A stretch of DNA of 64,000 nt from Thermoproteota archaeon (lineage in GTDB: Archaea > Thermoproteota > Thermoprotei > Gearchaeales > Gearchaeaceae): assembly GCA_021324265.1 (NCBI GenBank), contig JAJPJK010000009.1, positions 70,164-134,163 on the forward strand. Direction: 5' to 3'. The translations under genes were made by a program, and so were the position numbers. This document shows positions 246 through 7,215 of the stretch, piece by piece (the stretch's first letter is position 1; every line of letters starts with the position of its first letter). The notes below the pieces were generated by a model. It made no database searches and was not told where the DNA came from. It saw only the letters and a program-made list of their open reading frames with translations.

Positions 246-423
246 AACATAGAGAATAAACATATTTAATAAATAAAGAGACACAAAAATAGCTAAATTA
301 CTTGAGAATTAAGTCCAAATGGATTCGCAGAATCAATAGGAATCTAAAAGTAAACTTTGGCTGCTAAATTCATAAAAGTTAAGCCATAGAATAAAAGGCT
401 AATTTAAAAAAAAATTTAATGTT

Positions 424-600
424 AACAACATAGCCTTAATTCCACTTTGAAATTTTTCAAGGTTTACCTCATGCTTAAATCACATTAACAACAAGGCTAT
501 ATAGTAGCGAAATTAGCTTTAGCTAATGGAAATAACTGAAGTAGGTAGCTCATACGCAAGGGGAGCGACCTATGTATTCGCCGGCAGAGTATTATCTTAC
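424..600. repeat. Direct repeat copy A (imperfect ~180 bp; perfect 79-bp core 491-569), matching 6236-6412
   Basis: Both sequences were read directly. The core 'acaaggctatatagtagcgaaattagctttagctaatggaaataactgaagtaggtagctcatacgcaaggggagcgac' is identical at 491-569 and 6304-6382. The flanks are diverged but clearly related. Confidence 0.9.
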
Positions 601-2091
601 GTTTTCAATTTCATAGGATCATTCTTACTAGCTAGACTTATAGCTTTGAAGTATGGAAGTGCAGAGCCGCTTGGGATCCTTTTCGTTCTTAGCTTCGTAC
701 CACAGCTAACACTCCTCCTTTATGACTTCGGTATAGGATATGGCGTGACGAACAAGGCTCCTAGGCTTATAAAGGAAGGTAAAATTGAAGAAGCATCAGA
801 ATATATCTATTCTAGCATAGTTTTCACCTTGCCTTTATGGATATTCTATGCAACATTTACTTATTTCATTGGTGACTGGCTTGCCGTAAACCTTTATTCA
901 AGACCTGAGATAATCCCATACATTCATATCATCGCAATATACATCATCATCGGTTATGTTAATAGCATAGCTTCAGGCGCACCGATAATTACAGATAAGA
1001 CTTGGGTATTTAGCTCAATGCTTCTATTGAATTCAGCTATTCAAGGTCTTGTAGCTCCGTTCCTTTTCATAATCGGTTATGATCTCTATGGCGTTGTCTT
1101 CGCTTATTACGTGCTCGCTCCGCTCTTATCATCAATTCCAGGGCTCGTTATTTTCTTCCAATACTTTAAAGTAAGGAAAGTCGATCTGGCGAAAACTAAG
1201 TCGATGCTTAAGTTCGGCTTCCCCTTAGCTGCTGCGAACTACTTAGGAATACCTAGCGCAAGAGTCTATGAAGTATTCATGTCTAGATTCGCTTCTGCAA
1301 CTGCGCTTGGAAATTTCTCTATAGCTGCGAGATTCAGCCCTTTCATAGATATATTCACATATCCAATCTATTCTCTTATATTTCCGAATTATTCAAAGCT
1401 TAGAAACGGTGGAGATCTCAAGCTTGCACTGAACTTCACGATCAAGATACTTTCATACTTCGTAGCACCTGTTTCAATTTTTTTGATGTTTTTTCCTGAG
1501 CAAGCTATAATAGCGATATTCGGACCTTATTACAAGGATGCATGGATTTATTTGCTACTCAACGCGATTTATTGGTTGACATCTTGCCTAGGCGGATGGG
1601 CGATTTCAAATCTCATTGCTACACAAGGATATTCAAAAGAAGTATTCAAGTTCACTGCAGTATATGTTGCTTTAAATCTAGCACTGAACGTTTCTTTGAT
1701 ACCTTTGTTCTCAATAATAGGAGCTCAAATAGCTACGTTGCTTGCAGGCTGGCCTTCATATTTCCTAAGCTTAAAATACCTCAAGCAAAAAATGAACATA
1801 AGCATCAACTTTAGAGAAATCGGAAAAGTCGTGCTCATTTCTCTGATTGCGATTTTGCCATCATTTATTCTTTGGAATATCTTGGCAAGATTCATAATCT
1901 TAGCACAGCTCTCATTCTATGGTCTATTTGGCTTTTGCATACTCCTATCGCTAGTTCTTTATGTCATCGCTACAAAGAGATTTGGCGTTCTCAAGGATAG
2001 CGAGATAGATTTCATAAAAAGATCTCTAAGGCCTGTTCCATTGGTTGGCAATTTCATAAGTGTAATCCTAGATTTCTATAAGAGGCTATAG
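526..2091 (+). CDS. Polysaccharide biosynthesis protein / oligosaccharide flippase (Wzx-like, MOP superfamily)
   Basis: 521-aa polytopic membrane protein with about 12-14 hydrophobic segments. It has the typical Wzx/MATE-like layout. It sits in a sugar-modification cluster directly upstream of a GT4 gene. Confidence 0.7.
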   Translation: MEITEVGSSYARGATYVFAGRVLSYVFNFIGSFLLARLIALKYGSAEPLGILFVLSFVPQLTLLLYDFGIGYGVTNKAPRLIKEGKIEEASEYIYSSIVFTLPLWIFYATFTYFIGDWLAVNLYSRPEIIPYIHIIAIYIIIGYVNSIASGAPIITDKTWVFSSMLLLNSAIQGLVAPFLFIIGYDLYGVVFAYYVLAPLLSSIPGLVIFFQYFKVRKVDLAKTKSMLKFGFPLAAANYLGIPSARVYEVFMSRFASATALGNFSIAARFSPFIDIFTYPIYSLIFPNYSKLRNGGDLKLALNFTIKILSYFVAPVSIFLMFFPEQAIIAIFGPYYKDAWIYLLLNAIYWLTSCLGGWAISNLIATQGYSKEVFKFTAVYVALNLALNVSLIPLFSIIGAQIATLLAGWPSYFLSLKYLKQKMNISINFREIGKVVLISLIAILPSFILWNILARFIILAQLSFYGLFGFCILLSLVLYVIATKRFGVLKDSEIDFIKRSLRPVPLVGNFISVILDFYKRL

Positions 2092-5027: not shown

Positions 5028-6317
5028 ATGGAGTTACAAGAGCTCAATCACTGGTGGATCGAAGGAAGCGTTAAAGAAAGCCTTGTACCTGAATTCAAGC
5101 GTGACTTATTCAATATCATCTTACAGGATATCGCTAGGAGACAAATATGCATAATCACAGGGCTCAGGAGAACGGGGAAATCTACTTTGATGTTTCAGCT
5201 TATAGATCAGCTTATAAGAAGAGGCATAAATCCGAGAAAAATTCTCTACATTAGCTTTGACGAACCAAATTTCCAGCAGAAGAGGATCGAAGAAATACTT
5301 AGGGAATATTCAAAAATCACACGCATGGATTATAAAAGCGATGAAATCTATCTTTTCTTCGACGAGATACAGAAAGCGAAGGAATGGACGAGTAGCGTTA
5401 AACTGATCTATGACAATTTAAAGAACGTTAGGAAAATAGTCATAAGCGGTTCAGCTTCATTAAATCTCATAGCCGAGGCAAAGAAAGATCTTGCAGGAAG
5501 AGCGCTATATTACGAGCTCAAACCTATGAGCTTCGCTGAATTTCTTCGCTTCAAAGGAATCAGGGTTAGAAATGAGGATGTCGATTTGTATAGAGAAATA
5601 CTTCAAAGGGAATTCGAGCTATTCAAGCTAAGGCCTTTTCCAGAAATAGCTAGAGAAGAAGACATGACATTCATTAAAAAGTATATATACAGCGCCGTCA
5701 TAGAACCAATAATCCTAAAGGACATACCGAAAGAGTTCAAGGAAGTGGATGTTCTTTTGCTTGAAAGGTTGGTGCATATATTCCTTACCGAACCGGGTCG
5801 TTATCTCAAAGTGGATGAACTAGCAAAGGAGCTCTCGAGAGCGAAAATAACGATATATAAAGCTTTGTTTTATCTTGAATTCTCATACATAGTTCGTAAG
5901 CTGCTCAACTTCAGGCCTTCGATACGTTCAGCATCAAGAAAACTTTCGAAGATCTATGCCTATCATCCAGGCCTCTGCATCCCTTTCAACATCTCTGAAG
6001 ATAGATATGCTGAAAATCTTGTATGTTCAGAATTGAATGCAAGTTATTACTGGAGGGAAAGAGGAAAGGAGATAGATTTCTTGGTAAACAATGCACCCGT
6101 AGAAGTGAAGTATACTTCGAAGATAGGTAAGGAAGATTTGAGATGGATTAGATATTTTGAAAAAAAATATGCTAAGAGCTTGGGTATCAAACATGCGTTT
6201 ATCATTACAAAGGACTTAGAGTATAATGTTAATAACATAGCCTTGATTCCGCTTTGGAAATTTTCGTTCCAAGGTTTACCGCAAATCGATTTGTATCTTA
6301 AAGACAAGGCTATATAG
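5028..6317 (+). CDS. AAA+ ATPase with C-terminal DUF4143 (restriction-endonuclease-like) domain
   Basis: Walker A is 'GLRRTGKST' and Walker B is 'LFFDEIQ'. The C-terminal 'EIDFLV...VEVKY' is a PD-(D/E)xK-type motif. This is the common archaeal COG1373-type ATPase. Confidence 0.8.
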   Translation: MELQELNHWWIEGSVKESLVPEFKRDLFNIILQDIARRQICIITGLRRTGKSTLMFQLIDQLIRRGINPRKILYISFDEPNFQQKRIEEILREYSKITRMDYKSDEIYLFFDEIQKAKEWTSSVKLIYDNLKNVRKIVISGSASLNLIAEAKKDLAGRALYYELKPMSFAEFLRFKGIRVRNEDVDLYREILQREFELFKLRPFPEIAREEDMTFIKKYIYSAVIEPIILKDIPKEFKEVDVLLLERLVHIFLTEPGRYLKVDELAKELSRAKITIYKALFYLEFSYIVRKLLNFRPSIRSASRKLSKIYAYHPGLCIPFNISEDRYAENLVCSELNASYYWRERGKEIDFLVNNAPVEVKYTSKIGKEDLRWIRYFEKKYAKSLGIKHAFIITKDLEYNVNNIALIPLWKFSFQGLPQIDLYLKDKAI

Positions 6318-6412
6318 TAGCGAAATTAGCTTTAGCTAATGGAAATAACTGAAGTAGGTAGCTCATACGCAAGGGGAGCGACTTATTTATTCTCAGGCAG
6401 AGTATGATCTTA
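6236..6412. repeat. Direct repeat copy B (perfect core 6304-6382)
   Basis: See copy A. This copy overlaps the 3' end of the DUF4143 ATPase gene and continues into a 23-codon remnant of the flippase 5' end. Confidence 0.9.
6339..6407 (+). pseudogene. 5' remnant of a flippase gene (MEITEVGSSYARGATYLFSGRV*), duplicated from 526-594
   Basis: The translation matches the first 18 residues of the 526-2091 product and then reaches a TGA stop. It lies inside repeat copy B. Confidence 0.75.
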
Positions 6413-7215
6413 GTAATAAGATCGATTTAGCGCTAGAAATGGATTTAGAAAAATATGGTTTGGAAATGAAAGAGCTATCAAGAAAGATATTTAATGAAGT
6501 AAGTAAGTTGTTTGAAAATAAAAAAATTTTTTAGATTTTTTAATAAAATCTTAGAAACTACTTATCATCGATATTAGATAAGTTCCTGTAAAACTTCAGA
6601 TACAATAGTCAAGGAGTTAAATTTGAAAATTGAATTATAGCTCCATAGATTTGAAGTGCGTCGAAAAAATATTTCGTTACAGAACTAAAAATGTATTCGA
6701 TTCAGGCCCTAAATATAAACTCCATTCTTTAAATTCCTATATTTATATGAGGATAATAAGAAGTGGTGGTTTCATTGAAGTAATAAAGAAAATAAGAAAT
6801 ACGTTAGGGAGAGATATTGTTTATAGATATTAGTTAATCCAAAATCATGTTAAATCTTATAATAATATTTCAATTATTTTAATTAATTCTTGTACTCTTT
6901 GTTCAATTGTATTTTTATTATTTCTCATATCACTGTTTTGTAATTTTTCCCTATTATCTAAATAAATTCTATATTTCTTTAGGGCTATCGGCAATGCCTG
7001 TTTTTCAAATAAATCTTTCATGCCCTTTGTATTATCGGTTAATAAGAAAGATCTCAGCCATGCACCTCAACAACCTAATCTTGAGGACTATTAGCTCTTT
7101 TCGAAATTGAGAATGAAAATTTAGGATTCTCTTAACCGAATTAGAAACTATACTGTTCCCTTCCTGTACAGATCTTCTAGAAAAAGACTTTTATTGGAGG
7201 TATAGAAACTAGGCT

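Follow-up and report, generated by a model that had tools for sequence, protein, structure and literature searches.

A direct-repeat pair in an archaeal surface-glycan region: probable junctions of two diverged, complementarily truncated gene modules

Integrated elements of archaea, such as those that arise by SSV-type integration, are flanked by attachment (att) sites, in which a perfect direct repeat of some tens of bases brackets a multi-gene segment. A repeat pair of this outward form is present in the 64,000-nt stretch of DNA analyzed here (contig JAJPJK010000009.1 of the Thermoproteota archaeon assembly GCA_021324265.1, positions 70,164 to 134,163; the window), where an exact direct repeat of 79 nt brackets a 5.8-kb segment that encodes an oligosaccharide flippase, a GT4-family glycosyltransferase (GT), an AT-rich open reading frame (ORF) and an AAA_14+DUF4143 ATPase, the gene content that an earlier note on this DNA had given for it. 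Unlike att-flanked elements, the segment lacks an integrase and a tRNA target, and homology continues past the exact core into the flanks of the repeat. The repeats are probably the homologous junctions of two diverged and complementarily truncated modules, each composed of a minimal nucleotidyltransferase (MNT) gene, an ATPase gene and a flippase gene, with a recent patch of gene conversion laid over them. The repeat pair is an ordinary scar of recombination, and not a mobile element or a switch.

Systems of related kind that have been described include: (i) replacement flexible genomic islands of the O-antigen and capsule type, where surface-glycan islands are exchanged by homologous recombination and synonymous substitutions peak at the borders (PMC4033161), (ii) intrachromosomal gene conversion between diverged paralogs, including short-patch conversion, which was demonstrated between moderately diverged DNAs in Sulfolobus acidocaldarius and taken here as an archaeal precedent only (PMC3367456), (iii) gene duplication followed by complementary degeneration, and (iv) the candidate defence genes of PDC-S01, which are reported to be abundant in Archaea, without experimental validation (PMC12988326), and whose DUF4143 domain is placed in the PD-(D/E)xK superfamily (PMC3424549).

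The locus shares with the replacement islands a surface-glycan cluster (a flippase, many GTs and sugar-nucleotide enzymes), gene remnants and a mostly synonymous divergence of the junctions beside a block of identity. By contrast, both diverged border modules reside here in one chromosome of an uncultured archaeon, 5.8 kb apart, and not in different strains. The likeness to short-patch conversion is the short tract of perfect identity, here at least 79 nt, with sharp edges in sequence that is otherwise ~85% identical, although it is read from a single sequence pair in an organism other than Sulfolobus. As in duplication with complementary degeneration, two collinear three-gene copies are present, and each retains what the other has lost; their pattern of divergence, however, is that of copies which both stayed functional through most of the time since they separated, perhaps in different lineages, and not that of decay directly upon duplication. 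The ATPase, like its homologs, is found in a variable region next to toxin-antitoxin genes, a likeness which concerns one gene of the segment and not the repeats and which leaves the defence function of the family putative.

The repeat pair and the larger module

The two exact copies (491-569 and 6304-6382) are identical over precisely the 79 nt that the earlier note had claimed, with a mismatch immediately outside both edges. No match of this kind arose in 100 dinucleotide-preserving shuffles, and the core, which is not of low complexity, is the sole exact repeat of at least 25 nt within the window. The sequences around the core (417-599 and 6224-6412) align at 84-86% identity over 189-192 gapped columns with a start-to-start spacing of 5,807-5,813 nt. 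Thus, the flanks are related but diverged, as had been noticed, and the similarity is not confined to a short low-complexity stretch; self-alignment returns ~185 nt of gene sequence together with the unique exact core. Along this alignment the similarity is uneven: a 42-nt block of 88% identity gives way to 32-38 nt that are rich in indels and have little identity, followed by the perfect core and then by 19 nt with four differences. The most diverged stretch is the spacer just upstream of the core (459-490 versus 6266-6303), which adjoins a putative promoter and gene start that are identical in the two copies.

The core holds the last codons and the stop of the copy B ATPase reading frame in addition to the start of the flippase coding sequence. 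It includes a TATA-like TATATA at 498-503, 23-28 nt 5' of the flippase ATG, and several other genes of the window have a TATA-like box at a similar distance before their start. A leaderless flippase mRNA probably has its promoter in the core. A palindrome (ATTAGCTTTAGCTAAT) is also present at 512-527; palindromes of this 7+7 form occur at 0.5 per kb in the window (~0.04 expected per 79 nt), and this weakly unusual feature is given little weight.

On the ATPase side, the family provides a reference for both copies. Its members are 416-418 residues long and end in N-I-x-L-I-P-L-W-K-F-C-F-K-G-L. The copy B gene encodes a C-terminus of NVNNIALIPLWKFSFQGL followed by 11 further residues (PQIDLYLKDKAI) up to a TAG that lies inside the core. 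Copy A reads NVNNIALIPL, has TGA at the position of the invariant Trp and a 5-nt deletion, and then continues as QGLPHA to a stop; this segment is, by comparison with the family, a true pseudogene remnant of a sister ATPase. The residues NVNNIAL and FQGLP are common to both copies and absent from ~50 family members; thus, the two copies are truly paralogous. The usual family stop after the terminal GL is lost in the intact ATPase (6266-6317), and it is the decayed copy A that retains a family-like end.

On the flippase side of the core, copy A runs into the intact gene and copy B retains 22 flippase codons. The earlier note had described copy A as a decayed ATPase 3' end joined to an intact flippase start, and the premature TGA, the deletion and the match to the family C-terminus bear this out. 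For copy B, an intact ATPase end followed by a flippase stub was correctly recognized; the stub has 22 codons, and the TGA that had been assigned to it belongs to a fused GT remnant. The remnant (6402-6534) shares 84% identity with the 3' end (last ~45 codons) of a gene for a 412-residue GT (contig L001, 3827-5065), which resides 4.5 kb before the window. At the point of fusion, the flippase gene (GTATTATCTTAC), the GT gene (ATATGATCTTAG) and the joint (GTATGATCTTAG) overlap by 10 nt with one mismatch. Since the flippase and GT similarities overlap at the joint, the TGA of the stub is GT sequence read in another frame, and the joint looks like a deletion at microhomology. The same ATPase-end/flippase-start junction is, as had been proposed, present twice.

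The homology also extends more widely than the repeats that were first noticed. Self-comparison of the locus, extended upstream with contig L001 (window position equals L001 position minus 9475), detects two more homologous blocks of a divergence like that of the repeats. One is the GT remnant. The other (4732-4820) begins directly after the stop of the AT-rich ORF and has 86.5% identity with codons 1-29 of the MNT gene located ahead of copy A; a match over 32 codons was also obtained (E=4e-10). The MNT 5' end, the ATPase 3' end and the flippase 5' end are in identical order and orientation in both copies. Copy 1 has an intact MNT and flippase and an ATPase stub; copy 2 has an intact ATPase and stubs of the MNT and flippase. 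The picture of a discrete cassette set between 180-bp repeats did not hold, as the repeats are parts of this larger module. No further similarity was detected when 246-416 was compared with the ATPase gene and its upstream region, or when 6556-7215 was compared with the sequence that follows the intact GT gene. In all, 9 kb of the locus contain six gene fragments, as would suit an island prone to recombination.

Table 1. Features of the module copies and of the segment between them (window coordinates)
Feature	Position	Strand	Remarks
Intact MNT of a HEPN-MNT pair	12..245 (last 234 nt)	+	starts 93 nt before the window
ATPase 3'-end pseudogene remnant, ~last 20-30 codons	412..478	+	TGA for conserved Trp, 5-nt deletion, end QGLPHA and stop
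Repeat copy A: 3' end of decayed ATPase, spacer, putative flippase promoter, first 25 codons of intact flippase	417..599	+
Exact core, copy A	491..569	+	includes flippase codons 1-14, ATG at 526
Wzx-type oligosaccharide flippase, intact (Polysacc_synt_3)	526..2091	+
GT4-family glycosyltransferase	2091..3197	+
Cobalamin-independent methionine-synthase-like C-terminal remnant, twice frameshifted, three frames	3330..3640	+	Meth_synt_2 E=3e-4, marginal
AT-rich ORF, modelled as a PD-(D/E)xK-fold family member	3678..4736	+	21-27% GC versus ~38% around
5' remnant of second MNT gene	4733..4820	+	start ATG to ATA; similarity stops near codon 29
ATPase promoter region: palindrome P1, TATA-like AAGTTAAATA, palindrome P2 abutting ATG	4973..5027	+
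AAA_14+DUF4143 ATPase-nuclease, intact, PADLOC candidate PDC-S01	5028..6317	+	11-residue C-terminal extension
Repeat copy B: intact ATPase 3' end, spacer, same promoter and start, flippase stub	6224..6412	+
Exact core, copy B	6304..6382	+	ATPase stop TAG 6315-6317, flippase-stub ATG 6339
Flippase 5' stub, 22 codons and TGA	6339..6407	+	20/22 residues identical to intact flippase
GT 3' remnant, last ~45 codons	6402..6534	+	fused to flippase stub at TAT(T/G)ATCTTA, 6402-6411

Divergence of the copies and the identical core

Each remnant was compared with its intact partner, and the differences were counted by codon position. At positions 1/2/3 these number 0/0/5 in the ATPase block, 6/0/8 in the GT block, 2/0/2 in the flippase block and 3/5/9 in the MNT block, for an uneven total of 11/5/24 (chi-square p=8e-4). 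The non-coding spacer beside the core is far more diverged than the coding blocks. Since the differences fall mostly at third codon positions, the pattern supports, without being conclusive, a divergence of the copies while both were functional rather than the decay of a recent duplicate. The copies may have been brought together by import from another lineage or may be paralogs that were long kept, as either history is compatible with the codon pattern.

Set against this divergence, the core is too long to be a chance run. The alignment has 29 variable columns out of 189; when these variable sites were permuted 20,000 times, 79 consecutive identical columns never arose, and pooling all homologous blocks again gave 0/20,000. 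Protein constraint does not explain the identity, because relatives of the flippase are only ~75% identical at the DNA level in this 5' coding stretch and because copy B has no flippase gene left to protect. As the run is too long for surroundings of ~85% identity, and as a reciprocal crossover leaves products that are non-identical, the simplest cause appears to be a recent, short, non-reciprocal conversion tract from one junction to the other. Such a tract would explain a perfect core inside diverged flanks.

The relatives of the two genes bear on the origin of their adjacency. The ATPase family is very large, with hundreds of homologs at 57-68% identity in metagenome-assembled genomes labelled Conexivisphaerales, Nitrososphaeria and Bathyarchaeia and in DPANN-type groups (Micrarchaeales, Pacearchaeota, Nanoarchaeota and Aenigmatarchaeota). 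The neighborhoods of these homologs are variable, and toxin-antitoxin pairs and a TnpB-like gene are among them; a flippase, MNT, HEPN or GT4 gene was found beside the ATPase in none of ~80 loci. Likewise, none of five flippase relatives (51-64% identity) has the ATPase upstream; one of the five has HEPN-MNT directly before the flippase, and one (L010) has the flippase-GT4 pair. The absence of the ATPase-flippase adjacency from these ~80 ATPase and five flippase loci suggests that it arose once, in this lineage, and, judged on these neighborhoods, both occurrences are copies of one ancestral junction and not independent insertions. The contigs that carry the flippase relatives also carry PaREP1 genes.

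The proposed history is as follows. Two copies of the module would have come to lie 5.8 kb apart in an archaeal chromosome, in a variable region of surface-glycan and defence genes. The copies, diverged by ~14% and both apparently under purifying selection, would be either alleles of different lineages that were later joined by recombination or long-lived functional paralogs. The truncations would be later. Copy 1 is proposed to have lost its ATPase except for the last 20-30 codons and to have kept the MNT and the flippase with its GT4 partner. Copy 2 would have kept the ATPase with its own promoter and lost the MNT beyond codon 29; its flippase would have been lost beyond codon 22 when a deletion at microhomology joined the stub to the GT tail. 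Most recently, a short non-reciprocal conversion probably copied at least 79 nt from one junction onto the other, including the ATPase stop, the likely TATA box and the first 14 flippase codons.

Several points weigh against this history. The codon-position test is based on 40 differences, a small sample, and the third-position bias is weaker in the MNT remnant. The best flippase relative is 64% identical, and no close relative or strain variant was found in which the ancestral arrangement or the direction of events could be observed. A conserved regulatory role could also contribute to keeping part of the core unchanged. The assemblies that cross the repeats (see below) may share the same or sister samples, and their agreement demonstrates independence of the assembler, not of the population. 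Searches for relatives of the strain gave little: a scan of a genome collection with the flippase returned no relative, and a scan with the neighboring epimerase gave a best match of 63% and no genome of the species. Exact 32-mer searches with the core had no matches in a viral collection and none in a metagenome collection, the latter evidently without samples that carry the strain.

Competing explanations

An unlikely alternative to joined modules with a conversion patch is a Campbell-type integration, in which a 5.8-kb circle (flippase-GT4-nuclease-like gene-ATPase) with an intact ATPase-flippase junction would have recombined with a chromosomal relic of that junction, already decayed. Through the 79-nt identity the segment could then loop out again, and the flippase and defence genes would vary in presence or copy number. 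The geometry is suitable, in that the two decayed halves (left of A and right of B) would form one relic junction and the two intact halves that of the circle; an identity of 79 nt suffices for homologous recombination, and a divergence with the signature of purifying selection suits DNA from another lineage. However, a reciprocal crossover at 85% identity leaves product junctions that are non-identical, such that a conversion step is still needed. Moreover, the supposed circle would itself carry two gene remnants, no replication or integration gene is present in the segment, no plasmid or viral relatives were found, and neither a deletion joint nor an ATPase with an intact flippase behind it is present in any contig.

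A recent tandem duplication in situ of one unit (MNT-ATPase-flippase-GT4 and beyond) with neutral decay thereafter, in which the core is the stretch not yet mutated, is improbable. The shared order and orientation of the MNT, ATPase and flippase are what such a duplication would leave, and complementary loss is a familiar outcome of duplication. Neutral decay, by contrast, predicts an even spread over codon positions (not 11/5/24) and differences distributed evenly along the alignment, which the permutations contradict; a divergence of ~14% also implies a long time, over which pseudogene remnants are not expected to persist. The tandem duplication suggested earlier is, in a simple and recent form, disfavored by a divergence that is biased toward synonymous changes.

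An active cycle of excision and integration is possible but unlikely, and the fuller proposal, that ongoing exchange keeps the 79-nt identity perfect and that the 5.8-kb segment reversibly loops out, re-integrates or amplifies, finds little credence. A recombination event that joined the two cores would delete 5,813 nt, with the only flippase found, its GT4 partner and two nuclease-type genes, and it is physically reasonable that the repeats could be a substrate for deletion or amplification of this segment, as the earlier note had pointed out. Contigs with the flippase, the ATPase, the epimerase or a 31-residue remnant ORF have the same arrangement or are broken at the repeat, and deletion, circle or tandem-amplification junctions were detected in none of them; this search covered assembled contigs, where minor variants, visible only in reads, do not appear.

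It is very improbable that the arrangement is an assembly artefact, i.e., a chimera formed where two strains or loci have a k-mer in common. Contigs assembled with short k-mers do break at the repeat, precisely at copy B (L004 ends at window position 6333, 30 nt into the core, and L099 begins at 6304), and a chimeric contig, unrelated to the repeats, is known for the region; the breaks at copy B are, however, those of a genuine repeat in a de Bruijn graph. Both copies are spanned by three further contigs, ENA ERZ27279669 (MEGAHIT k141), JGI 3300027968 and NCBI GCA_035294585.1, which are 100% identical to the window, and the k-mers of the k141 contig exceed the length of the core. The chimeric contig just mentioned, L180 (JGI 3300027706, 907 bp), corresponds to window 3168-3826 followed, after an A/T run (AAAAATATAAAAAATTT), by unrelated DNA that is much more GC-rich. 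It was considered as a structural variant and rejected on account of this unrelated remainder; it is most likely an assembly chimera and the source of a spurious 77-residue database protein.

An integrative element, transposon or provirus that carries the cassette, with the repeats as its att sites or terminal repeats, is scarcely credible: while direct repeats do bracket a segment of mixed composition with an AT-rich gene (21-27% GC) and defence-type genes, every ORF of the segment and beside it was scanned against Pfam and PADLOC and no integrase, recombinase, transposase or viral gene was detected, neither copy has a tRNA within 22 kb, the segment ends have no terminal inverted repeats, the core is absent from the viral collection, and the repeat is 180 nt of gene sequence, unlike the ends of an insertion sequence or composite transposon, with flanks 79-88% similar on both sides and recognizable gene ends where att sites would have unrelated flanks. 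Site-specific exchange at the junction, which had been put forward earlier, is for the same reasons (no recombinase, flanks homologous beyond the core and no tRNA target) not supported.

Other genes of the locus and the meaning of the repeats

The ATPase of copy 2 matches PDC-S01 over its full length (E=9e-56, PADLOC). Upstream of the gene (4970-5030), a palindrome P1 (ATTTGTTTTCTTATAAAACAAAT), a TATA-like TTAAATA and a palindrome P2 (ATTCGTTTTCTAAAAGAACAAAT) are arranged in this order, with P2 up against the ATG. This layout is also found upstream of ~18/19 homologs of 57-68% identity from very different archaeal metagenomes (e.g., L011 5940-6003, L012 2500-2562 and, upstream of the match, L100-L118). 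In an ATPase subfamily of 32-44% identity the half-sites are altered (GTATCA, GTTCCA and GTACAC), jointly in P1 and P2. Based on this pattern, P1 and P2 look like putative autoregulatory operators that co-evolve with the ATPase and travel with the gene. No description of the double-palindrome layout was found in the literature searched.

No relative of the AT-rich ORF emerged when 5.8 billion proteins were searched with a word-seeded method, and an exhaustive HMMER search detects 13 distant relatives (24-36% identity) among 1.8 billion representatives. The family alignment reveals conserved GExLCIWW, E-x-D, E-x-K and Q motifs, the last three corresponding to E208-x-D210, E224-x-K226 and Q240. 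From an alignment-based model, the protein is confidently modelled as a helical N-terminal domain with a C-terminal domain of the PD-(D/E)xK nuclease fold; a single-sequence prediction had a predicted local distance difference test (pLDDT) score of 35 and was unusable. Profile searches against PDB sequences and Pfam were uninformative, and the best relative is surrounded by unknown genes only.

The flippase of the module is the only one detected among the genes scanned in 73 kb (the window and 9.5 kb upstream). It resides in a long surface-glycan cluster, with GTs, a methyltransferase and sugar-modifying enzymes encoded upstream of the window and epimerases, UDP-sugar dehydrogenases, an aminotransferase and more GTs encoded downstream of the repeats; toxin-antitoxin and defence-type genes are interspersed. 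Other fragments and gaps are apparent among these genes. The methionine-synthase-like remnant between the GT4 and nuclease-like genes scores 20.5 bits against Pfam Meth_synt_2 (cut-off 21). The ~150 nt between the MNT remnant and the ATPase promoter (4821-4972) are comparatively GC-rich, have no similarity to anything examined and may be a further gene fragment. The 660 nt between the GT remnant and the epimerase (6556-7215) are ~25% GC and have only short ORFs (67 residues on the plus strand and 54 on the minus strand) with no family matches. An 84-residue ORF at 8327-8581, between the epimerase and the next GT, corresponds to the C-terminal end of Glycos_transf_1 (profile positions 113-171 of 172) and is, by this match, another truncated GT. 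An Rfam scan of 1-9000 returned nothing at E<=1.

Beyond the cluster, the window includes an archaeal 23S-16S rRNA operon, an archaeal RNase P RNA and tRNA-Ile (24085-29408) and encodes TiaS, a thermosome subunit, the archaeosine TGT and DUF2070 elsewhere; thus, it is part of an archaeal chromosome. The record GCA_035294585.1, which holds the same sequence, is named 'Geobacterales bacterium', in what looks like a taxonomic mislabel.

The repeats record a familiar type of genome history, met here in a new organism, and the result is modest unless reads show excision or amplification. If ongoing exchange did occur, it would provide recA-type, recombinase-free ON/OFF or dosage variation of surface-glycan and defence genes in an archaeal population. 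Should the repeats recombine, the only flippase of the cluster would be a deletable unit; otherwise, the biological consequence is limited. For annotators the locus is a warning that an apparent direct-repeat cassette need not be a mobile element. Two by-products may be of wider use: a conserved double-palindrome promoter found with archaeal PDC-S01 genes and a rare new family with a predicted PD-(D/E)xK fold. As a whole, the locus lends itself to a dissection of how surface-glycan and defence genes of an archaeon may be remodelled, since the arrival of a diverged module by import or duplication, microhomology deletions and a short conversion tract can all be read from one sequence.

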